Positions 18,447 to 42,587 are shown, numbered from the stretch's first letter. The stretch: DNA of 64,000 nucleotides from an uncultured delta proteobacterium (GCA_963767925.1 CAVYGB010000002.1:608001-672000); one strand, 5' to 3'. Made by a program: numbers and translations. Notes: a model not told the origin generated them from the letters alone.

Positions 18447-19556
18447 TCAAGGGGACTGGGGGCGGGCAGCCAGGAACGCGGCCACCCGTCTGGTCGCGTT
18501 CTGGCGCAGGTTCATGAAGAAGAGCTGGTACTCGATGGCGTGGTAGTTGCCCGCGCCGAGCAGGTGGTCGAGGATCCGGCTGGGGAGATCGCGCGCCACC
18601 GGGCCGAGCTGGGTGATGAGGAGGGTGCCGCCCCGGCACTGCGCGTCCGCGAAGCCGGGGCGCGGCCGGGGGTCGCGCTCCAGGAACACGGCACCCAGGT
18701 TCAGCGCGGCCGGCGCGACGGCGCCGTCGTTGCGCCAGGAGAGGGGGTTGCTGCAGAGGCGCTCGCGGCGATCCGGCAGGTGCATCTCGAACGCGCTCGC
18801 CACGTACCGGGGGCTCTTTGCGTTCCAGGCCACGACACAGTGGAGGTCATCGGCCGCGCCGCAGGCGGCCAGGTCGGGCGCGCGCTCGCGCAGGCCCGCC
18901 GCCGTGAGGCGCCCACCAGGCAGGTAGGCGGCGACGAGCTGGTCCCGGAGGGCCCCGCCCGAGACGACCTCGTACAGGAGCCGTTCGGCCAGCACCGTCC
19001 CCTGGCTGTGGGCGGCCAGGAGGAACGGGCGGCCGGGGCCGCGCCTCGCCTGAAAGGCGTCGAAGGCGCGCCGCACGTCCTGGAACGCCAGCTCGAAGGC
19101 GCGCTCGCCGTCGGCCGACGGCCAGGGGAACGACATCCCGTTGGCCTGGCGGTACCTCGGCGCGTACACCGCGCAGCAGCCGTTGAACGCGGCGGCCTGG
19201 ATGCCGGTGGCCACCCGGTCGGTCGCCGCGTTCAGCGAGGCGTCGTCGGTGGGCCCGTTCCAGCGCCCGCCGAGATAAGACGTCGGGTGCAGGTAGAAGA
19301 CGTCGGCGGGCGCGCGGCGCTGGTCCACGGCCGGCGCCCCCGTCGGCGACCGATCCGCCAGGTCGTCGCGCTCCGGAAGGGCGCTCCAGCTTCCGGGATC
19401 CGTGTAGTCGGGCGGCGCCGGCGGCCCCTGGGCGGCGAAGGGCCCCCGGGGCGAGCTCGCCAGTCGAACCAGCCGACCCAGGTTCAGGAACAGCGCCCCC
19501 CCGATCACGACGCCGCCGAGCCCGATCCAGCCCGCGACCCGCAGCGGTCTGCTCAC
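18447..19556 (-). CDS. DUF3089 family alpha/beta hydrolase
   Basis: DVFYLHPT, YAPRYRQ, PFLLAAHSQG, LVAAYL, CSNPLSW, YH..EY.LF. Confidence 0.9.
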   Translation of the reverse strand: MSRPLRVAGWIGLGGVVIGGALFLNLGRLVRLASSPRGPFAAQGPPAPPDYTDPGSWSALPERDDLADRSPTGAPAVDQRRAPADVFYLHPTSYLGGRWNGPTDDASLNAATDRVATGIQAAAFNGCCAVYAPRYRQANGMSFPWPSADGERAFELAFQDVRRAFDAFQARRGPGRPFLLAAHSQGTVLAERLLYEVVSGGALRDQLVAAYLPGGRLTAAGLRERAPDLAACGAADDLHCVVAWNAKSPRYVASAFEMHLPDRRERLCSNPLSWRNDGAVAPAALNLGAVFLERDPRPRPGFADAQCRGGTLLITQLGPVARDLPSRILDHLLGAGNYHAIEYQLFFMNLRQNATRRVAAFLAARPQSP

Positions 19557-19654
19557 GGGGCCCTCATCGAGCCCGCGCCCTTCGTCCGGGAGCCATCTCG
19601 CCGAATGTAGGCGGCCGCCGTCGAGGACGCCACCGCCATTGGCGGCGGTTCGTT

Positions 19655-19682
19655 TGTCAGACCGGCGGGTGGCGCCGCAAAC
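19655..19682 (+). promoter_or_regulatory. Putative ECF promoter TGTCAG-N16-GCAAAC (copy 1)
   Basis: Same hexamer, pentamer and 16-nt spacing as 20344 and 25488. Confidence 0.7.
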
Positions 19683-19743
19683 AAGCCAGGGAGGACGGCG
19701 CGGTTGTCGCGCTGGCTCGAGGAATCAGCAAAGGAGTGGGGAC

Positions 19744-20226
19744 ATGACGAACGTGAAGATGGGGCTCTTGATCGCGGCAGTCGGATTCACGGCGGTGGCG
19801 TGCGTTCCGCCCGAGGAGGCGGGGGTCGAGGATGTGTCGGCGGCGCCGGTGGCAGCGGAGGCGGTCGAGACGACGACCCAGGCCCTCGGGTCGGAGACCT
19901 GCAAGAACGTCGACCTCTATATCCGGAACAACTTCACGGACGGGTCGCGCACGCCGACCATCCAGATCGACTGGATCGAATATCGGCTGCCGTCGGGCTG
20001 GAACCGGGAGGACCTGCCCAACGACGAGATCACCACCGGCGCCAACCACAAGTTCGACAACGAGGATCTCGGCCACGCTTACAACGACCCGCTGGAGTCG
20101 TGGAACATCCGCTTTCGCTTCCGGGAGAGCGACGGGGACTGGTCGGACTGGGACACGCAGAGCTTCAGCTACACCGGCTCGCCCACCTGTACCGACAGCC
20201 GCGTCTATTCGCTCGTCGTCGACTGA
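19744..20226 (+). CDS. Hypothetical lipoprotein (beta-rich, two further Cys)
   Basis: SD aaggag; lipobox AVAC; VETTTQAL linker typical of myxobacterial secreted proteins. Confidence 0.8.
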   Translation: MTNVKMGLLIAAVGFTAVACVPPEEAGVEDVSAAPVAAEAVETTTQALGSETCKNVDLYIRNNFTDGSRTPTIQIDWIEYRLPSGWNREDLPNDEITTGANHKFDNEDLGHAYNDPLESWNIRFRFRESDGDWSDWDTQSFSYTGSPTCTDSRVYSLVVD

Positions 20227-20343
20227 TCCGGACCTGCGCGCAAAGCGGCGGCGACGCCCCCTCTCCGTCCAACGGGGAGGGGGCGTCGCCCGTTTTGCGA
20301 CCGCGCGCGCGAAAGAGAGGCCCGGCGCGAACGGCGGGATCGC

Positions 20344-20371
20344 TGTCAGACCGCGGCCGCCCGGCGCAAAC
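20344..20371 (+). promoter_or_regulatory. Putative ECF promoter TGTCAG-N16-GCAAAC (copy 2)
   Basis: tgtcag accgcggccgcccggc gcaaac. Confidence 0.7.
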
Positions 20372-20431
20372 GGGTCTGGTGGAGACGGAAGGTATCCGCC
20401 TCCTTCAGACCGTAGACGAGAGGAGATCGCC

Positions 20432-21139
20432 ATGACCTCGAACCACGACCGCACCCACATCGCCACCGGCACGGACCGGCGGCCCAGCGACACCACCCAC
20501 CCCGCTGGCCGCGGCTGGCGCACGCGCCGCTGGCTCGCGCTCGGTGGGCCGGCGCTGCTGCTCGCCAGCGCCGGCCTGGCCGCCGCCGCCATCAGCAACG
20601 TCGTCGGCATGGCGGCCCAGGTCGCGCCGCCGGCGACGGTGCTGCCCGCCGCCAACCAGGGGGCCGTCATCCAGGCCTTCAACGAGCTGCAGAACGTGAT
20701 CCTCCCGGTCGACCTGCCGGTGGACGCCCGGGGCACCAACCCGCCGACGGAGCTGCGGAACGAGCAGGACCTGCGACCGGGGAAGATCCCGGCGGGCACC
20801 TGCGTGAGCAGCCACTACCTGCACTTCGACCCCGCCGCCGCCGCCGCCGTCACCGGCGGGGTGGCCTTCGATGGGCCGATCCTCGGCGTGGCGGTCATGC
20901 CCGACACGCTCGACGCCACCAACCCGCTGGGGTGGCCCTGGACGAGCTACCCGGCCGACGCGAACGCGGGTAGCTGCGCGGTGGGCGCCAACCACTGCGG
21001 CCTGGAGCTGACCGGGCAGGACCTGCTGCGGGTGGGGATCGATCGGGTCGAGCTGTCGGCCTTCGCGGCCAACCCGGGCGACCGCATCCGGGTGATCACG
21101 GCCGGCGACTGCCGGTGCAACAACCCCGGCAAACCCTGA
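20432..21139 (+). CDS. Hypothetical secreted protein
   Basis: SD gaggag; signal RRWLALGGPALLLASAGLAAAA; AFNELQNV..GTCVSSHYLHFDP..FDGPILG..GLE..DRIRVIT domain. Confidence 0.8.
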   Translation: MTSNHDRTHIATGTDRRPSDTTHPAGRGWRTRRWLALGGPALLLASAGLAAAAISNVVGMAAQVAPPATVLPAANQGAVIQAFNELQNVILPVDLPVDARGTNPPTELRNEQDLRPGKIPAGTCVSSHYLHFDPAAAAAVTGGVAFDGPILGVAVMPDTLDATNPLGWPWTSYPADANAGSCAVGANHCGLELTGQDLLRVGIDRVELSAFAANPGDRIRVITAGDCRCNNPGKP

Positions 21140-21195
21140 TGGCTTGCCTCGGGGGCGCGCGGTCGCTAGGGTCGGTCGGTGTGAGGGAACCGGGG

Positions 21196-21912
21196 ATGGG
21201 TGATGTCGGCGCCGTGGGCGCCACCGAGCGACCGCGTGCACCGGAGGCGGCTCCGGCGCCCCCCTCGCGGGCGGATCTGGAGCTGGTGACGCGCGCGCTG
21301 GCGGGAGAGGCGACGGCGATGCGCGCGCTGATCGATCGGCTGCTGCCGGTTATCCAGACGCGGGTGGGCCTGGCCCTGATGCGCCGGCGTGGCCAGGCCC
21401 GCGGCCGCGACCTGCGCGCCGAGGTGGAGGATCTGAGCCAGGAGGTGTTCCTGGCGCTGCTCGAGCGGGAGGGGCGGGTCCTGCGCGGGTGGCAACCGGA
21501 GCGTGGGCTCTCGCTCAACGGGTTCGTGGGGCTGGTGGCCGAGCGCGAGGCGGGCGCCATCCTCCGCACCGGCAAGCGCAGCCCCTTCACCGAGGACCCC
21601 ACCGCGGACGACACGCTCCACCAGCTCGGGTCGGCGGCCCCCGGCGAGCGGGCGCCGGTCAGCGAGGCGATCGAGTCCCGCGACCTGCTGGAGGTTGTCG
21701 TCGATCGCCTGCGCGAGCGGCTCAGCCCGCAGGGCTTCTGGCTGTTCCAGCTCCTGTACGTGGAGGAGCGCTCGATCGAGGAGGCCTGCGCGTCGACCGG
21801 CATGAAGGCCGACGCCCTGTACGCCTGGCGCAGCCGCATCGGCAAGCTGGCGCGCGAGGTTCGCGACGAGCTGGCCGGCGCGCCCGGCCCCGGAGAGAGA
21901 GGACCATCATGA
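21196..21912 (+). CDS. RNA polymerase sigma-70 factor, ECF subfamily
   Basis: DLELVTRALAGE..AMRALIDRL, VEDLSQEVFLALL (region 2), SIEEACASTGMKADALYAWRSR (region 4); alternative start GTG 21181. Confidence 0.9.
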   Translation: MGDVGAVGATERPRAPEAAPAPPSRADLELVTRALAGEATAMRALIDRLLPVIQTRVGLALMRRRGQARGRDLRAEVEDLSQEVFLALLEREGRVLRGWQPERGLSLNGFVGLVAEREAGAILRTGKRSPFTEDPTADDTLHQLGSAAPGERAPVSEAIESRDLLEVVVDRLRERLSPQGFWLFQLLYVEERSIEEACASTGMKADALYAWRSRIGKLAREVRDELAGAPGPGERGPS

Positions 21913-22616
21913 GCAGCGACGACGAACGCCTGCTGAGCCGCATGGGGCAGGCCCTGCGCGATCGGCAGGGGCGCGAAGAGGCGGCGGCGAGCGAGGGGCT
22001 CCCGCGGGAGCTGACCGAGCCGCTGCCGGCGAGCTTCCGCGAGGCGCTGGCCGAGCGGGCGTTGCAGACCCTGGGACCGGCGCGGGCGGCGCCGGCGGTG
22101 GCCGCCCGGCCCATCGCGAGCGCCCGGCCCCGCCGCCGGTGGCTGGCGCCCTCCTTCGTGCTGGCGCTCGGGGCCGCGGCGGCCGCCTGGATGATGTGGC
22201 GGGCGCCGGCGTTGCCCGCCTACGCCCTGGCGCTCGAGGGGGGCGACGCGCCCCTGCGTGGGGCGCCGGCGGCGGCGGGACCCGGGCGCGTGACCCTGGC
22301 CCGCGATTCGCGCCTCGAGCTCGTGTTGCGTCCGGCCACCCCGGTCGAGGGGGCGGTGCAGGCGCGGATCTACCTCGCGGGCGATCCGCCGGTTCCCCTC
22401 GACGCCGCCGTGGAGGTGGCGCCCAGCGGAGCCGTGCGCTGGTCCGGCACCGCCGAGCAGCTCGTGGGGGCCCGCACCGGGGAGGTCGATCTCCTGGTGG
22501 TGGTGGGCCGCCCGGCCGCCTTGCCCGCCCCCGGCGAGCTCGCGCGGCAGCCGGAGGGCGGGCGCACCTGGCAGCGCTTCCGGGTCCCGCTGCGGGTTGT
22601 CGTCAGCGAACGATGA
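21909..22616 (+). CDS. Putative single-TM anti-sigma factor
   Basis: ATGA overlap with the sigma; short cytoplasmic N-terminus, RRRW + TM (FVLALGAAAAAWMMW), C-terminal beta domain. Confidence 0.7.
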   Translation: MSSDDERLLSRMGQALRDRQGREEAAASEGLPRELTEPLPASFREALAERALQTLGPARAAPAVAARPIASARPRRRWLAPSFVLALGAAAAAWMMWRAPALPAYALALEGGDAPLRGAPAAAGPGRVTLARDSRLELVLRPATPVEGAVQARIYLAGDPPVPLDAAVEVAPSGAVRWSGTAEQLVGARTGEVDLLVVVGRPAALPAPGELARQPEGGRTWQRFRVPLRVVVSER

Positions 22617-25476
22617 CCCGGAAGGCGGCCCAGTCGGCGTCCGGCCGGTCGCGCGCCAGGCTCCGCTGCGCCAGGCGCAGGGCCTCGCCCAGGTCGGCGA
22701 GGTCGCTGCGGTGAAGGCGGGTGGCCAGCTCGCGCGCCACCCCGTCGCCCACCTCGCGCACGCTGGCCACCACCGCCTCCGACCCGGCGAGCACGAAGGC
22801 GTGGGCCAGCCCCAGCTCGGCCCCGGCCTGGCGCTGGCTGCGCCCGGTCTCGCAGCCCGAGAGCACCACCGTGCGCGGGACGGCGTCCGCGGAGAGGGCC
22901 AGCACGTCGGCCACCGCCAGGGCGGTCCCGCCCGCCAGCGGCAGCTCGCTGCCCATCCCGTCGGGCGCCGCGAAGCGGCCGTGGCCGGCGTAGTGAAACA
23001 GGTCGGCCCCCGCCAGCAGCGGCCGCACCCGCGCCGCCGACAGCTCCCCCTGCAGCCCGACCGCCTCCAGCACCCGCGTCGCGCCACGCGCGCGCAGCAA
23101 GGCCACCACCTCGGCCCCCTCGCGGCGCGCCCCGGGCAGGTCGCCGCCCGGATCGGCCACCACCACCGCGGGCCCCGGGACCGCGGGGCGTGACGGCGAC
23201 GGCGGCAGATCCAGGCTGTAGACAACCTGCCGGCGGGAGCCGAGCGGCTCGCCCTGGAACGGCAGGGCGTGGAAGTCCACCCCCGACAGCGGGCCGTAGC
23301 CGAGCACCCGCACCCGGCGCGCGGCCGCCAGCGGCGGTCCGAACGGGCGCAGCAGCCGGGCGGCCAGCTCGGCGGGCGGCGCCGCCGGGTCCACCGGCCC
23401 GAGCTGCACCAGCTCCGTCGCGCCTTCGCTGATCAGGTAGCCCTGCCAGGTTGTCGGGCCGGCGGGGCCCCGGCTGGCGGGATGAAAGCCCAGGATGGCC
23501 TCGCCGGGCCCCGGCGGGGACAGCGGCGCCCGCTGCGCCGCCGGGGCGAGCCGGGCCAGCGCGGCGGCCAGCTCCTGCCGCGCTTCCCGGGCGATCTGCT
23601 GCTCGGACGCCCGGGCCGCCGCCAGCTCCGATCCGGGCAGGCTCCAGCGCCGCTCGGCCAGGGCCTCGAGGCGGGCCCGCGCGGCCAGGAACGCGCCGGC
23701 GGCCCGCTCCCAGCTCCGCCGCAGCGCCGGGTCGAGGGCGCGCGCGCCGTCGTGCAGGCGGGCGTGCAGGAGATCCCGGGGACGCAGGCCCACCAGGGTG
23801 CGGCCGCGCCCGCGGCGGGCCACCTCGATCGCCTCCACCGTCCGCCCGGCCGCCTGCAGCGCCGCGATCAGCTCGCCGGTGGCCAGGTCGCGGGCGCCGA
23901 GGAAGTCGCTGCGCCCCTCGCCCAGCGGCACCTGGTTGATCTGATCGTCGAGCAGCGCTTCGGCCTCCTGGTAGGCGGCGATGGCCTCCATTCGCTGACC
24001 CTGCAGCGCCCGGGCGCGGGCGCGCCCCACCGCCGCCCGCCAGCGCGCCTCACCGGCCAGCGTGCGGGCCGCCAGCTCCTCGAGCCGCTGGTAGGCCGCC
24101 AGCGCCGCGGCAGGCTCCCCCGCCGCCAGGGCGGCGCGCCCCTCGAGATCGATCCGCCACAGCTCGATGAAGGTCTGCGGCGGCTGCTCGCCCGCGCCTG
24201 CCGCCGCGAGCGACTCCCGGGCTGGCCCCACCTGCCCCGCCTGCAGGTGGGCCAGCGCCAGGTTGACCGCGGCGTTGGCGAGCTGGCCGCCCGCGGTGGG
24301 ACAGGCGCCGCGATAGAGCGCGAGCGCCTGCTCGGCCCGCGCGATGGTCCCATGCACGGAGCCCGCCACCGCCGGCGAGGTCCCCGCCTCGCGGGCCATC
24401 GCCTCCTGCCAGGCCAGGCTGCTCAGGAACCCGGCGCGCTCGCAGGGCGCGCGGCCTGCCGCCGCGCCGGCCAGCGCGCGAAAGGCTGCCAGCGCCTCCT
24501 CGAAGCGGCCGAGGGCGCCCAGCATGGCCGCCTCCTGCCGCCGGGCCAGCCAGACATCCAGCGGCTGGTCGAGCCGCTCGGCCCGCGCCGCGGACGAGGC
24601 GAACGCCGCCAGCGCGCCGGCCAGGTCCCCCGACCGCTGCGCCAGGTACCCGCGCTGCATGTCCTGCCACAGCGCCGCCATCCCGCTCACCTGCAGGGCG
24701 GCTGCCTGCTCCAGGCGCGCCCGCGCCGCTGCCAGATCGTGCCGCCGGGTCAGGTGGCCATGGGCGAGGGCCAGGTGGTACCGCGCGGCCGACAGCCGCG
24801 CCCCCGACCGCGCCGCCTGCTCCGCCGCCTGGCCCCGCAGGTCGAACCACCGCCCGACCTCCCCGCGCGCCTGCGCCACCTCCGCCCGCAGGGCCAGGCC
24901 GAGCGCGCGCTGCCGATCGTTCAGCGCGGGCCAGGCGCGATCGACCAGGCTGGCCGCCCCGGGCCCGTCGCCCGCAGCCAGCCGGGCGATCGCCGCCTGC
25001 AACGCCGGGTGCGGCTGGGCGGCGACGAGGTCGAGCTGCCAGCGCCAGCGGCGTCCGGCCTGCCGCACCTCGAGCGCGATCGCCTGCCGCGGATCGGGCG
25101 CGGACACGACGAGCTGGACGCCGCCCGGCAGGCGCTGCTGCCGCGCCCCCGCCGGCGCCCGCACCTCGGCCCCGGGCGCGACGGGCGCCCAGATCACAAG
25201 CCGCGTCCGTGGCCCCACGGCGCAGCCGCCACCGGCGAGCACCTCCTCGCACCCGGCCACCTCCACCCCGGCGAGCGCCTCCAGGGGCCCGCCGTGAAGG
25301 CCGAGCCCGGCGGCCACCGCGAGGGGGACGGCGCTGGCGGCGAGCGCCAGGGCGATCCGACGGCCCACCGGGACCGCCCATCCGGGCGGGTGCACCTGCG
25401 CGTCGAGCTCCGGCGGTGTCAGGCCCGGGGCAGCCGGGGTCGAGGGAAGTCCGCTGGCCACCGGCTCGCTCTTCAT
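22603..25476 (-). CDS. TPR-CHAT domain protein (caspase/separase-like protease) with N-terminal hydrophobic anchor
   Basis: C-terminal LFHYAGHG (His) and VVLSGCETG (Cys) dyad, GLAHAFVLAG, WAAF; TPR-like helices; N-terminal IALALAASAVPLAVAAGLGL. Confidence 0.9.
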   Translation of the reverse strand: MKSEPVASGLPSTPAAPGLTPPELDAQVHPPGWAVPVGRRIALALAASAVPLAVAAGLGLHGGPLEALAGVEVAGCEEVLAGGGCAVGPRTRLVIWAPVAPGAEVRAPAGARQQRLPGGVQLVVSAPDPRQAIALEVRQAGRRWRWQLDLVAAQPHPALQAAIARLAAGDGPGAASLVDRAWPALNDRQRALGLALRAEVAQARGEVGRWFDLRGQAAEQAARSGARLSAARYHLALAHGHLTRRHDLAAARARLEQAAALQVSGMAALWQDMQRGYLAQRSGDLAGALAAFASSAARAERLDQPLDVWLARRQEAAMLGALGRFEEALAAFRALAGAAAGRAPCERAGFLSSLAWQEAMAREAGTSPAVAGSVHGTIARAEQALALYRGACPTAGGQLANAAVNLALAHLQAGQVGPARESLAAAGAGEQPPQTFIELWRIDLEGRAALAAGEPAAALAAYQRLEELAARTLAGEARWRAAVGRARARALQGQRMEAIAAYQEAEALLDDQINQVPLGEGRSDFLGARDLATGELIAALQAAGRTVEAIEVARRGRGRTLVGLRPRDLLHARLHDGARALDPALRRSWERAAGAFLAARARLEALAERRWSLPGSELAAARASEQQIAREARQELAAALARLAPAAQRAPLSPPGPGEAILGFHPASRGPAGPTTWQGYLISEGATELVQLGPVDPAAPPAELAARLLRPFGPPLAAARRVRVLGYGPLSGVDFHALPFQGEPLGSRRQVVYSLDLPPSPSRPAVPGPAVVVADPGGDLPGARREGAEVVALLRARGATRVLEAVGLQGELSAARVRPLLAGADLFHYAGHGRFAAPDGMGSELPLAGGTALAVADVLALSADAVPRTVVLSGCETGRSQRQAGAELGLAHAFVLAGSEAVVASVREVGDGVARELATRLHRSDLADLGEALRLAQRSLARDRPDADWAAFRVIVR

Positions 25477-25487
25477 CTTCGACTCCC

Positions 25488-25515
25488 TGTCAGGAAGGAC
25501 GCCTCGCCGGCAAAA
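25488..25515 (+). promoter_or_regulatory. Putative ECF promoter TGTCAG-N16-GCAAAA (copy 3)
   Basis: tgtcag gaaggacgcctcgccg gcaaaa, 43 nt upstream of the S8 gene. Confidence 0.7.
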
Positions 25516-25558
25516 GATTCCCGGGGGTGAAGCGTTCACTCTCCGAGGAGGTCCTTCC

Positions 25559-27747
25559 ATGTACATCCGGATCGCGCTGTCTGCACTCTCCCTGCTGGCC
25601 CTGTCGCCCGCCTGCCGGCCCGACGACCCGACCGCGACCGCCGCGGCGCTGGCGCTCGACGACGACCTGGAGGCGGAGCTGCTGGCCCAGTCCTGCTCGG
25701 GCACCGTGCTCGTCGCCGAGGGCAAGGCCTGCGTCCCGCACCCACAGTGGCGGGCGCGGCCGCTGTTCGACGAGGCGAACCGCGGCGCCGGACGGCTCGA
25801 CCGCTACTGTGTGTTCGAGTGGGAGGGCGACGGCGTGCCCCGGCCCGACCAGTACCCGCACGCCGACGACCCGGATCCCCCCGCCCCGACTGCGCCGCCG
25901 CGAGCCCCCTGGCCCCCCTGCCCCCGGAGCCCCCGCTGCTCACCGAGGGGCAGCTCGAGGCGCGTTTCCTCGATCACGTGCGCGCCCTGCCCGCCCTGCC
26001 GGCGGCCACCGATCCCGCCGCGGTCCCGGTGGCGGTCTCGGTGATCGACACCGCCCGGGAGCTCGGCGCGCCCGGCGCGCCCGGCGCCGGCAACGCCCCC
26101 CACGGGCGGGCCATGGGCCTGCTCATCGACCGGCTCGCCTGCCCGCCCGGCGGCGCCTGCGCCGCCCGCATCGACAACGTCCCCGCGCTGCGCATGGTCC
26201 GCACGCCCGCGGGCCTACGCCGCGACAGCAACGGCGGCTACTGGGGCTACCTCGGCGACATCGCCTGGGGCATCGGGCTGGCGGTCGCCGGGCGCCCCGC
26301 CGGCCACCACCACATCCTGAACCTCAGCCTCGGCTGGAACGCCGAGCTCGGGGACGTGGGGGCCGCCACCCGGCCGCACGTGCGGGCGGTCCACGATGCC
26401 CTCCGCTACGCCCGCTGCAGCGGCGCCCTGCCGATCGCCGCCGCCGGCAACACGCGCGGGCAGCGGCCGCCGCCCGAGGGCCCGCTGGTGCCGGCCGCCT
26501 GGCAACGGCTGCCCGCCCCCACCGCCGCCGCCTGCCAGAGCGACTTCGGCATCACGCCGCCGGCGCCGCTGGCCGGCCCGCTGGTCTTCGCGGTCAGCGC
26601 CGTCGATCCCTTCGACCGCGCCCTCACCACCACCCCGCCGGGCGGCGTCGCCCCGCTGGCCGCCCCCGGGCTGCAGGTGGTGGTGAGCGACGGCAACCCA
26701 CCGCCCGGCCCGCCACCGGTCGGCCCCCAGACCGGCTCGTCGCCGGCCGCCGCCACCGCCTCGGCGCTGGCCGCCATCGTCTGGACCTATTACCCCGAGC
26801 TGCCGCCCGACCAGGTCATGGCTCGAGTCGCCGCCGCCGGCGTCGAGCTCGACGAGCCGGCGGACTTCTGCTTCCAGAAGAGCCCCTGCCCCCCGGTGCG
26901 CCGCCTCTCCACCTGCGCCCTGGTCCAGGCCGCCTGCCAGGACGGCCGCTGCAGCCCCGTCCCCGCCTGCGAGCCCGACGCGCCCCGCGGCGCTCCCCTG
27001 CCCGGCGGCCCGCACGCGCCGCTGCCCCGCACCTGCGCTGAAACCCGCGCCCCCCACGGCTGCGCCGAAGATCCCCGGGACGCCATCGGCAACCGCCGCA
27101 TGTTGCCCCTCGGCGACCCCCAGCCCAACGAAGACCCCTGCGGCTCGACCTGCGGGCTCGGCGCCGCGGAGTCCCTGCACGCAACAGCCCGCGCGGCGCC
27201 CGCGGAACCGCCCGCCGCGCGCCCCGCCACCGCCCCGCTGCGCCTCGAGCTGCCCATCAACCCCAACCTCTCCGGCTACGCCTTCTCCGCCCACCGCCTC
27301 TGGATCCGCGACGACGCCACCCCCACCCGCGGCTGGCTGCAGATCGACCTGCGCGCCCGCCTCCCCGCCGACCAGCCCGGCGGCGCCACCTTGCGCCTCG
27401 AGCTCGACCCGGGCGCCGAAGGCATCACCGGCCAGATCCACGCCGCCCAGATCGACTTCACCTTCGAAGAGCGCCTCCTCGACGGCCGCCCCCTCCGCCG
27501 CCTCGTCGGCAGCCCCATCACCGTCCCCCCGCCTCCGGCCCACCCGCCCCCGCCCGGTCGCGCTGAACGGCGCCCGCGCGACCTGCTCGCCATTTTGCAT
27601 GACCGCGGCGGAGGCCGGTCGGCGCCGAGCCGCCCGCGCGAGCTCCTGCTCGCTGGAGATCGGGTTGGCGGTCCGCATCCGGGGCCTGCGGCCGGGCGCT
27701 GCAGGGCCGGCCTTTTACCAGTCGGACTTTTACCAGTCCTGGCTTGA
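25559..27747 (+). CDS. S8 subtilisin-like serine peptidase lipoprotein, frameshifted at C6 25877-25882 (true stop may be 27566)
   Basis: SD gaggagg; lipobox SPAC; triad VIDT / HGRAM / TGSS, oxyanion AAAGN, ILNLSLG; one extra C in the C6 run joins the two frames. Confidence 0.8.
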
Positions 27748-27785
27748 CCGGCCACTGCCGCGCTTCTAACGTCCGGCCCGCCGCC

Positions 27786-28676
27786 ATGAAGCCGAAGCGC
27801 GCGTTCCTGGTCTCCCGGTCCTGGCTGTGGCTGCTGGCGCCGCTCGCCGCCTGCGCCGCGCGATCACCGGTCCCGTCGGTCCTGGTCAAGCCCCTGGTCG
27901 CGGGCGAGCAGCTGTTCGGCGAGTCGCTCCCCCCCATGACCGTCGTGCTCACCTACGACGACGGCCCCGACGAATCCACCCTGCCAATCGCGCGCTACCT
28001 GCAGAGCGAGGGCCTCTCGGTCACCTTCTTCGTCAACGGCGGCCGCTTCTGCAAGCAGGCCGACGCCGCCGGCAATTGCCTGCAACCGATGGAGACCCGC
28101 CCCTGCGACGACGGCCGCGCCCAGGCCGCGGTGACCACCCCGCGCTACTACCCCGAATCGCTGCTCGACGAGCTGCAGGCCCTGGGCCACCGCATCGGCA
28201 ACCACACCCAGAGCCACTGCCACCTCACCAAGCAGACCGATCCGGAGCACCTCGACTGGGAGATCAGCGCCACCCAGGAGATCCTCGACCGGCACATCCG
28301 CGACGGCGTGTACCTGTTCCGCGCCCCCTTCGGCCACTGGGACCAGGCCACCGCCGATCGGCTCGCGAAGTCGAAGGTGTGGCCCCGGCTCACCGGCCCC
28401 ATCAACTGGGACGTCGACGGGGACGACTGGGACTGCTGGCGCGCGCAGAGCTCGCCCGATCAGTGCGTGGAGAACTACATCCGCATCCTGGCCGCCCGCC
28501 CCAACCACAACGGCGTCTTCATCATGCACGACCGCCCCGAGTTCAACGTGGGCATCGACGGCCCCCTACAAATGACGAAGATCCTCATCCCCCGCCTACG
28601 CGCCCACGGCTACAAGTTCGCCACCGTAACCGACCTCCTCGCCCTCCCCCCCCAGGCCCGCCTCGCCCAGCGCTGA
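27786..28676 (+). CDS. Polysaccharide deacetylase (CE4/NodB) lipoprotein
   Basis: LTYDDGP, TFFVNG, IGNHTQSH, FRAPFG, WDVDGDDW, IMHD. Confidence 0.9.
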   Translation: MKPKRAFLVSRSWLWLLAPLAACAARSPVPSVLVKPLVAGEQLFGESLPPMTVVLTYDDGPDESTLPIARYLQSEGLSVTFFVNGGRFCKQADAAGNCLQPMETRPCDDGRAQAAVTTPRYYPESLLDELQALGHRIGNHTQSHCHLTKQTDPEHLDWEISATQEILDRHIRDGVYLFRAPFGHWDQATADRLAKSKVWPRLTGPINWDVDGDDWDCWRAQSSPDQCVENYIRILAARPNHNGVFIMHDRPEFNVGIDGPLQMTKILIPRLRAHGYKFATVTDLLALPPQARLAQR

Positions 28677-28688
28677 AGGCCCCCGGCA

Positions 28689-28779
28689 GCGAGCGTCGTC
28701 GCGGTCGAGCGGCGCCGGGGCTCGCACGACGGCATCATGATGCTACTCGCCTGTTCGTCCGAAAACAGAGCGTCAAGCC
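28689..28779. repeat. Degenerate direct repeat of 30208-30300 (vapB 5' end plus operator/promoter)
   Basis: gcgagcg.cgtcg.ggtcgagcg...tcgca.ga.ggcatcatgatgc...aaaca.agcgtca.agcc shared by both sites. Confidence 0.75.
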
Positions 28780-28844
28780 GTGGATGCCGGACGCAAGGCG
28801 AGGCTCTTGCTGGCGGGCGGGCGGAGGAGGAGTATGATCTTCGT

Positions 28845-29072
28845 ATGCAGAAGGCCCGCGTGACCGTGACGGTGAGACGAGACATCCTCGCCAAGGCCGA
28901 GCGGCAAGTGAAAAAGGGGCGAGCGAAGTCTGTGAGCGCGTGGGTCGACTCCGCCATGGAGGAAAAGGCGCGTCGTGAGGATCTGGCGTCTCTCCTGGCG
29001 GAGATGAAGGCGGAGAGCGGCCCCGCCAGCCCTGAAGAGGAAGCTTGGGCGCGCGACGTCCTCGGCCTGTAG
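28845..29072 (+). CDS. Antitoxin, ribbon-helix-helix type
   Basis: ARVTVTVRRDIL..VSAWVDSAMEEK; overlaps the PIN gene; -10 TATGAT 6 nt before the ATG. Confidence 0.8.
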   Translation: MQKARVTVTVRRDILAKAERQVKKGRAKSVSAWVDSAMEEKARREDLASLLAEMKAESGPASPEEEAWARDVLGL

Positions 29073-41715: not shown

Positions 41716-41774
41716 GTCGCCCGGCCCGGCGGGCGGACAGGACACACCTTTGCGGCGGGAGGCATCGAACAGAC

Positions 41775-42587
41775 ATGGCGAACTTGCAAGCGGTGGAGAG
41801 TGGGGACCGGCGCGTGACGGCGGCAGCGGCGTTCATGCTCCGGTCGCCGGGCTGGCTGTCGGAGCTGTTCCAGTACCTGCCGGCGGCGGTGATGCTGTCG
41901 GTGGGCGCGCTGGGCGGGGCGGCCCTGGCGGGTCGGGGGCCGCAGATCTTGCGCGAGCGCAAGGCGCTGGGCGGGCTGCTGGTGGCGGGGGCGGCGCTGG
42001 GGCTGGCCAAGTGGCAGCTCGACCGGTTCTTCACCGAGCAGCCGGACTTCACGCTGGAGGGCAAGGTCGGCGGCCTCGAGCTGCGGCGCTACCACGCGCG
42101 GGTGGTGGCGGAGACGACGGTCGAGCAGCCGGACTGGGACGAGGCGCTGAACGAGGGGTTTCGCCGGCTGGCCGGGTACATCTTCGGGGCCAACGACGGC
42201 AAGCAGAAGATCGCCATGACCACGCCGGTCAACGCCACCCGGAGCCGGCCCGAGAAGATCGCGATGACCACGCCGGTCACCGCCAGCGCGCAGGCCGGCG
42301 CCGTGACCGTCACCTTCAGCATGCCGAAGGGGCGCGACCTCGCCTCGCTGCCCAGCCCCGTCGACCCGCGCGTACGCCTGCGCGTGCAACCGGCCGGGCG
42401 GGTGGCGGCCCTGCGCTCCCACGGCCGCTACGACGACCGGCGCATCGAGACCCTGAAGGCCGACCTGCTCGCCCGCCTGAACACGGCTGACCTGCAGCCG
42501 ACCGGCCCCGCCCTGTTCGCCGGCTACGATCCCCCGTCCACCCTCCCCTTCCTGCGCCGCCTCGAGGTCTGGGCGCCGATCGCCTGA
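41775..42587 (+). CDS. SOUL heme-binding protein with N-terminal TM segments
   Basis: GFRRLAGYIFGAN, KIAMTTPV (twice), YDPPSTLPFLRR.EVW. Confidence 0.9.
   Translation: MANLQAVESGDRRVTAAAAFMLRSPGWLSELFQYLPAAVMLSVGALGGAALAGRGPQILRERKALGGLLVAGAALGLAKWQLDRFFTEQPDFTLEGKVGGLELRRYHARVVAETTVEQPDWDEALNEGFRRLAGYIFGANDGKQKIAMTTPVNATRSRPEKIAMTTPVTASAQAGAVTVTFSMPKGRDLASLPSPVDPRVRLRVQPAGRVAALRSHGRYDDRRIETLKADLLARLNTADLQPTGPALFAGYDPPSTLPFLRRLEVWAPIA

Follow-up and report, generated by a model that had tools for sequence, protein, structure and literature searches.

A 64,000-nt stretch of DNA from an uncultured delta proteobacterium (GCA_963767925.1 CAVYGB010000002.1:608001-672000, G000:C2:608001-672000 in our numbering; hereafter the window) was found to carry three copies of the bipartite element TGTCAG-N16-GCAAA in the neighborhood of a gene for a divergent sigma factor of the extracytoplasmic function (ECF) type. 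We consider it highly probable that the adjacent sigma recognizes these three boxes as its cognate promoters. The assembly to which the window belongs comprises 9,336,993 bp in 13 contigs with 71% G+C, and genes in this G+C-rich window were called from third-position G+C content together with similarity. The boxes stand before two genes here designated g1 and g2 and before a gene for an S8 subtilase. The sigma gene lies downstream of g2 and is followed by a gene (+1) for a membrane protein that is a putative anti-sigma factor, and by a gene for a TPR-CHAT protease on the other strand.

An exact search of the window returned three matches, all on the + strand, against a mean of 0.01 matches in 100 dinucleotide-preserving shuffles, none of which reached three. 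An earlier annotation made from the sequence of the window without database searches (the sequence-only reading) had reported the same three exact copies with their fixed 16-nt spacing; its start coordinates were retained, and its ends, each 1 nt too long, were corrected (Table 1). Scanning of both strands of the whole assembly, a check that this reading had proposed, recovered the same three copies and no others, in agreement with its observation of no complete copy elsewhere in the window. When the boxes were kept and the spacer was changed, the assembly contained two copies with a 15-nt spacer, one with 18 nt and none with 12, 14, 17 or 20 nt. From the counts of TGTCAG (888) and GCAAA (4836) on both strands, ~0.23 copies of the full element were expected genome-wide. 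At that rate, three or more copies have a Poisson probability of 0.0017, a figure that does not yet take into account that all three fall within 5.9 kb on the same strand. A scan of the window allowing one mismatch added a single site (41749-41775, - strand), which was rejected as it lies past the end of a hydrolase gene on the + strand and has no - strand gene downstream.

The sequence-only reading had further placed the boxes 43-61 nt before secreted-protein genes. This placement was upheld, with the range amended to 44-62 nt: the gaps between the last base of GCAAA and the ATG are 62, 61 and 44 nt for boxes 1, 2 and 3, respectively, and a GGAG-type ribosome-binding site precedes each of the three ATGs. 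Transcription starts are predicted near 19688, 20377 and 25521. A genome of the same genus (G001, 86% complete) contains counterparts of two of the sites, namely CGTCAG-N16-GCAAA located 83 nt ahead of its g2 orthologue and TGTCAG-N16-GCCAA before S8 in its CHAT/S8 intergenic region, the latter inside the best-conserved block of that region; the sequence flanking the two sites diverges. When the three sites were aligned with these two counterparts, no positions were invariant other than GTCAG and some of the -10 box, which shows that the three sites do not stem from duplication of a longer segment. A relaxed 25-mer scan of the same-genus genome gave 57 matches versus 23 for its control and was uninformative. 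No sigma-70-type promoter was found by simple scans of 19400-29000, and no Rfam family was detected in 19000-29000.

Related loci were collected by a one-genome-per-species scan with a sigma profile built from 26 homologues, and the best 80 of 206 relatives (1.38 Mb) were analyzed. The exact boxes of the window failed as a query, with TGTCA…CAA found upstream of the sigma orthologue in 1 of the 80 loci, and a generalized -10 element was therefore sought. Listing of all GTCAG occurrences upstream of sigma yielded a recurrent tGTCAGa-N15-GCGTA/GCGAA arrangement; the family consensus is tGTCAGa-N15-gCGaA. The strict pattern.GTCAG-N16-[GC]C[GA][TA]A matched 120 times in the 80 loci, against 8 matches for the reversed pattern, so that the motif geometry described by the sequence-only reading extends to the orthologous loci. 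In the 79 loci left after exclusion of the window's genus, to which all counts out of 79 refer, the strict 16-nt spacer was retained: it accounted for 97 matches in a spacer scan, compared with 3, 4, 6 and 3 for spacers of 12-15 nt and 1, 2, 2, 0 and 0 for those of 17-21 nt. At least one match was present in 63 of the 79 loci, with 84 matches on the strand of sigma and 35 on the opposite strand. The -10 element read GCGAA in 74 cases, GCGTA in 21, GCAAA in 7 and another sequence in 17; by this comparison, the family element is mostly GCGAA or GCGTA, and the GCAAA of the window is its lineage variant.

The positions of the motif in the related loci were recurrent as well. In 28 of the 79 loci it precedes the +1 gene and lies where the sigma gene ends; it is found before S8 on the same strand in 20 of the 36 loci having S8; before sigma in 14 of 79; and divergent from the upstream region of sigma in 10. 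In those 28 loci (within L048-L122), it was seen ~570-640 nt after the aligned sigma start, inside or just after the last sigma codons and facing the +1 gene. A start of an open reading frame, assigned by a crude rule, follows within 300 nt for 92 of 103 matches, at a median distance of 32.5 nt. Copies within one locus shared the same -10 pentamer in 53 of 64 pairs, whereas shuffling gave 36 +/- 3.6 such pairs and in none of 2000 rounds as many as 53, a comparison that is indicative only, as the related genomes are kin and not independent samples. Two whole genomes were also scanned with the strict pattern: one of 14.6 Mb contained 7 matches, 3 of them within 7.3 kb beside sigma (control 3), and one of 8.8 Mb contained 10, 3 of them within 8 kb beside sigma (control 3).

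The sigma assignment was drawn from profiles and a structural model. Pfam Sigma70_r2 and r4_2 matched in the right order and below threshold, at 13.5 bits (cut-off 24) and 13.9 bits (cut-off 25.7), and TIGR02937 scored 24.9 bits versus a cut-off of 42.9. A homology search returned 627 homologues at E<=1e-5, and those given a name by their source are named as ECF-subfamily sigma-70 factors; a precomputed PF04542 assignment was present on 4 of the 120 homologues listed and absent from the other 116. Comparison of the 26-homologue profile with the PDB gave 9isn_F, annotated 'ECF sigma factor', at E 3.6e-8 over positions 15-208 of 227, covering both domains. It was the only sigma-factor chain among the PDB matches at E<=1, the other nine being unrelated proteins. 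An AlphaFold model (mean predicted local distance difference test score, pLDDT, 82.8) contained two helical bundles joined by a low-confidence linker, and its top Foldseek matches, each at probability 1.00, were the ECF sigmas AlgU, SigL, SigE and SigH, with other ECF sigmas also among the best. The ECF homology covers both domains by profile and by model, and regions 1.1 and 3 are absent. On the profile and the AlphaFold model, we accept the adjacent gene as encoding a divergent ECF-type sigma. Its family is represented by a single copy in this genome, in which a first-look screen listed 62 sigma-like candidates; the orthologue in the same-genus genome shares 75% identity by genome search and 77% by tblastn.

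As noted by the sequence-only reading, no box stands directly before sigma in the window. Sigma is nevertheless probably part of its own regulon and most likely belongs to the transcript from the box before g2 (P_g2). The sigma ATG is 56 nt after the g2 stop codon, and simple scans found no terminator-like site between the two genes. Sigma is most likely co-transcribed with g2 from P_g2 by read-through, and would then be autoregulated. Between g2 and sigma, the sequence TTGCCT-N17-TAGGGT (21144-21172) resembles a housekeeping promoter by eye, and could supply basal sigma expression. TTGCCC-N17-TAACGT was seen, also by eye, at the equivalent place in the same-genus genome; a MAFFT alignment did not pair the two, and a consensus scan called neither. 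Within 330 nt upstream of sigma in the related loci, words characteristic of housekeeping promoters are enriched: TATAAT was found in 6 of 78 loci versus 0.2 expected, and ATTGAC in 8 versus 1.1. Because the motif precedes the +1 gene and TATAAT/TTGAC elements lie upstream of sigma, the related loci suggest constitutive expression of sigma with sigma-dependent expression of the putative anti-sigma.

Several findings weigh against the assignment of the boxes to this sigma, or against parts of the model built on it. The transcription starts at the three boxes are predictions; a search of sequencing runs returned no RNA run containing this DNA, and one soil DNA run that shares a small part of its words. 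A family position-weight matrix gave 655 matches of at least 10 bits in this genome versus 309 for the reversed matrix, which is a noisy control, and the three sites, ranking 5th, 8th and lower, are not singled out among the 655. The relaxed family pattern gave 17 genome-wide matches versus 9 for its control; among the 17, an exact TGTCAG together with a promoter-like leader (44-62 nt) is seen at the three known sites alone, and five more have an open reading frame downstream by the crude rule, 8-34 nt off, four of the five carrying CGTCAG. The sigma itself fails the curated Pfam and NCBIfam cut-offs. In the relatives, 16 of the 79 loci lack a strict match, and 47 of the 119 matches precede other or unrecognized genes. 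The significance of the pentamer shuffle is overstated because the related genomes are not independent. The case for read-through into sigma is made up of the 56-nt gap and the missing terminator-like site, and both the role of the +1 protein as an anti-sigma and the freeing of sigma by proteolysis are inferred.

The genes following those 47 matches mostly encode proteins without a Pfam family; LamG/reprolysin-like and DUF4214 proteins are found among them in Sorangium. In three Sorangium loci (L070, L074 and L084), motif copies stand before LamG/reprolysin-like metallopeptidase and DUF4214 genes near sigma, and these genes are probably lineage-specific regulon members.

A different alternative sigma, encoded elsewhere in the genome, might read the boxes, leaving their proximity to this sigma incidental. 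The 62 sigma-like candidates imply that other ECF sigmas probably exist in this genome, and several ECF groups use TGTCA-type -35 boxes; in the accessible part of the supplement to the ECF classification (PMC7826278), the groups ECF41, ECF37 and ECF22 provide examples of -35 elements of the TGTCA type and of a -10 element of the GCGAA type. We nonetheless judge this explanation very unlikely. The motif accompanies this particular sigma family in Myxococcota, Bradymonadia and Acidobacteriota alike; in whole genomes it is concentrated next to the sigma gene; its -10 variant is specific to the locus; and no other conserved regulator was found in the module in the 80 loci.

It is very unlikely that the boxes serve as operators, bound by a repressor or an activator, and not as promoter elements. 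Such a role would accommodate starts that are predicted only, and also the motif matches that in some related loci lie within the sigma coding region, at its 3' end. However, the element is asymmetric and bipartite and points at the downstream gene, its strict 16-nt spacer fits a -35/-10 geometry (97 matches versus 0-6 for other spacers), start codons follow at the short median distance given above, and the loci contain no conserved transcription-factor gene. An origin of the three copies by chance or as remnants of a duplicated segment, conceivable for an element of only 11 specified bases in a large genome, has a negligible probability, being effectively refuted by the genome scan, whose expectation and P value do not yet count clustering, the 80-locus counts and the spacer test, and opposed by the lack of similarity between the sites beyond the boxes and by the conservation of the boxes in the same-genus genome.

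The sequence-only reading had assigned the boxes to the adjacent ECF sigma as its cognate promoters; the computational checks that it had proposed all favored it, and we keep this assignment with two amendments, that sigma likely belongs to the P_g2 operon and that GCAAA is a lineage variant. Under this assignment, the -35 element TGTCAG(A) would be recognized by region 4 of sigma and the -10 element GCAAA by region 2, with the fixed 16-nt spacer between them. Three transcription units are proposed. The first would run from P_g1 through the lipoprotein gene g1 alone and end at a strong hairpin; the second, from P_g2, would include g2, sigma and the overlapping membrane-protein gene, providing both positive and negative feedback; and the third, from P_S8, would include the S8 gene, perhaps with the deacetylase gene that follows it (Table 1).

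Table 1 Coordinates of the predicted promoters, genes and terminator of the locus, in window positions.
Feature	Coordinates	Strand	Description
Predicted promoter box 1 (P_g1)	19655..19681	+	TGTCAG, 16-nt spacer, GCAAA; ends 62 nt before ATG 19744
g1	19744..20226	+	160 amino acids; lipoprotein-type signal (…FTAVAC…); no known family
Hairpin, probable terminator g1/g2	20235..20300	+	GC-rich, then GUUUUG
Predicted promoter box 2 (P_g2)	20344..20370	+	Exact boxes; ends 61 nt before ATG 20432
g2	20432..21139	+	235 amino acids; Arg-rich N-terminus, then hydrophobic segment (signal or anchor); no known family
Divergent ECF-type sigma	21196..21912	+	238 amino acids
+1 gene, single-pass membrane protein, putative anti-sigma	21909..22616	+	235 amino acids; start overlaps sigma stop (ATGA)
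TPR-CHAT caspase-like protease	22603..25476	-	957 amino acids; N-terminal hydrophobic anchor; Pfam CHAT E 5.4e-28
Predicted promoter box 3 (P_S8)	25488..25514	+	Within 82-nt divergent CHAT/S8 intergenic region; ends 44 nt before ATG 25559
S8 subtilase	25559..27747	+	Pfam S8 E 7e-8; lipoprotein-type signal
Polysaccharide deacetylase	27744..28676	+	Pfam PF01522 E 2.8e-21; abuts S8 stop codon

Genes neighboring sigma in the 80 loci were identified by tblastn using the window proteins, and S8 was counted when located no more than 10 kb from sigma. The membrane protein was found near sigma in 56 of the 80 loci, CHAT in 59 and S8 in 36, and the usual arrangement was sigma, membrane protein, CHAT, S8, all co-directional. 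The S8 counts and the motif before S8 in 20 of those 36 loci are two independent lines that support the sequence-only reading in tying the non-adjacent S8 gene to the system. The 80 loci come from Myxococcota (including Sorangium, Polyangium, Pyxidicoccus, Chondromyces, Plesiocystis and Haliangium), Bradymonadia, Acidobacteriota (Thermoanaerobaculia and Holophagales) and unclassified bacteria. Within the order, sigma relatives were found in 12 of 89 genomes, this one included, and a metagenome scan for closer relatives yielded only 4 short, distant contigs. Judged from these gene neighborhoods, sigma, membrane protein, periplasmic TPR-CHAT and S8 protease form a module that is conserved across phyla.

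The model of the +1 protein (pLDDT 81.9) comprises two N-terminal helices, a transmembrane helix (82-97) and a periplasmic immunoglobulin (Ig)-like beta-sandwich, and its fold matches were generic Ig-like domains; no Pfam match was obtained even at E<=10. Its residues 1-80 contain no Cys or His. The protein was seen to lack an N-terminal segment of ~30 residues (consensus RWDRLAAGxLxxEE…) that is kept in most of the 19 aligned orthologues. All 52 aligned homologues of the CHAT protein retain its His-Cys dyad (His832 and Cys875), and all 13 aligned S8 sequences share the catalytic Asp, His and Ser as well as the oxyanion Asn. With both sets of catalytic residues conserved, the CHAT and S8 proteases look active. 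CHAT is a separate gene in every locus examined; anti-sigma-CHAT fusions suggested by the open-reading-frame rule were out-of-frame reading frames across the anti-sigma gene and were withdrawn. The CHAT gene of the window is inverted relative to the usual family order, and the same-genus genome has the same divergent arrangement. The inversion separates the gene from the promoter that serves it elsewhere, and no motif copy faces it.

In the mechanism we propose, the membrane protein, as putative anti-sigma, would hold sigma, and an envelope signal would lead to its proteolysis by CHAT and/or S8. The freed sigma would then transcribe the module genes together with lineage-specific secreted proteins, here g1 and g2. 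The proteolytic-release step is proposed because of the precedents of DdvA and ECF54 described below. A broader reading, which we advance tentatively and would sooner doubt than accept, is that this is an undescribed multi-phylum family of ECF-like sigmas, largely missed by domain models, each wired to a 'split DdvA-like' periplasmic protease cascade in which stand-alone TPR-CHAT and S8 would cleave an Ig-domain anti-sigma. The promoters of sigma (TGTCAGA-N15-GCGAA) would then precede the anti-sigma/CHAT and S8 genes and not sigma, so that the protease sensor would be re-armed or amplified, as opposed to simple sigma autoinduction.

Operons of the RpoE-RseA type combine a two-domain sigma, a bipartite promoter of fixed spacing, a membrane anti-sigma encoded directly downstream, a small local regulon and release by proteolysis. 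The boxes of that type are AAC/CGT, in contrast to TGTCAG(A)/GCGAA here, and in most members of the present family the motif precedes the +1 and S8 genes, not sigma.

The closest characterized system is DdvS/DdvA of Myxococcus xanthus. In the accessible portions of its descriptions (PMC6061681, PMC11506125), it consists of an ECF sigma and a single-pass membrane anti-sigma with a periplasmic TPR-CHAT containing a His-Cys dyad, and autoproteolysis of DdvA is proposed (PMC11506125). As far as those portions go, it resembles the window in having several sigma-dependent promoters in one locus and a peptidase gene in the operon. The differences are as follows: TPR-CHAT is fused to the anti-sigma in DdvA, whereas the two are separate genes here, in different frames or on different strands; the cytoplasmic domain of DdvA is a zinc-binding CHCC domain, whereas residues 1-80 of the +1 protein of the window are devoid of Cys and His; the DdvS promoters are GTAA-N16-CGT (PMC6061681), compared with TGTCAG-N16-GCAAA in the window; and the DdvS regulon is a defense island of CBASS and CRISPR-Cas, whereas the targets here are secreted proteins and proteases.

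By gene neighborhood, the closest group is ECF54 (Huang et al. 2015; Casas-Pastor et al. 2021, PMC7826278), which in the accessible part of its description is 100% Actinobacteria, and for which proteolytic control is proposed and untested according to the part of PMC8999054 that was available. In these sources, ECF54 sigma genes likewise lie beside a subtilase and a CHAT-TPR gene with a conserved +1 protein, and their predicted -35 element GTATCAG shares a TCAG core with TGTCAG. The same sources describe an ECF54 +1 protein with a carboxypeptidase-regulatory-like domain that is not deemed an anti-sigma, whereas the +1 protein here is a single-pass membrane protein without a Pfam match. The ECF54 gene order is sigma, +1, subtilase, CHAT, compared with sigma, +1, CHAT, S8 here, and the predicted ECF54 -10 element is CTCC, compared with GCGAA/GCAAA. 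The hosts differ as well, being Myxococcota, Acidobacteriota and Bradymonadia in the present family, with no named actinobacterium among the best 80 of 206 relatives. By sequence, the sigma may yet fall into one of the listed ECF groups, ECF54 included. In the accessible part of the classification supplement (PMC7826278), ECF54 is the one group for which CHAT is mentioned, and promoters with GTCAG or TCAGA do not occur. Neither that part nor full-text literature searches turned up an account of the module or its motif, and the sigma/protease module across phyla is apparently undescribed.

A consensus promoter and a testable minimal regulon are thereby provided for a sigma family that mostly escapes the curated models and that occurs in cultured Sorangium, Polyangium, Pyxidicoccus, Chondromyces and Plesiocystis as well as in Acidobacteriota. 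The results tie a periplasmic CHAT protease and a subtilase to sigma signaling in an arrangement unlike that of ECF54, which is a prediction only, and that of DdvA, in which the parts are fused, and they offer a tractable system for asking whether CHAT proteases are site-1 proteases for anti-sigma factors. The rarity of the strict motif genome-wide makes it useful for annotating members of the regulon in genomes as large as these.

Among the predicted target genes, S8 contains a frame change in a run of C at ~25877-25890: the signal part is read in the same frame as 25559, and the catalytic part in that of 25747. The orthologue in the same-genus genome has a single frame, and the change is either an assembly indel or a recent frameshift. 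The polysaccharide deacetylase gene is possibly co-transcribed with S8. It was not found beside S8 in the same-genus genome, which makes its membership of the unit uncertain. Signal peptides of g1, g2 and S8 were read from the translations. The g1 and g2 proteins had no match in Pfam or NCBIfam, and a protein atlas gave unnamed clusters only. The g1 gene was not found in the same-genus genome or in any of the 80 related loci, and g2 was found in 1 of the 80, the contig of the same-genus genome, where its orthologue (66% identity) lies directly upstream of sigma. The hairpin after g1 is predicted to fold at -62.7 kcal/mol (z-score -5.7), and none of 200 shuffled sequences folded as well. A second, small terminator-like hairpin (19632-19649, + strand), with no + strand gene upstream of it, has a T-rich tail that enters the -35 box of P_g1.

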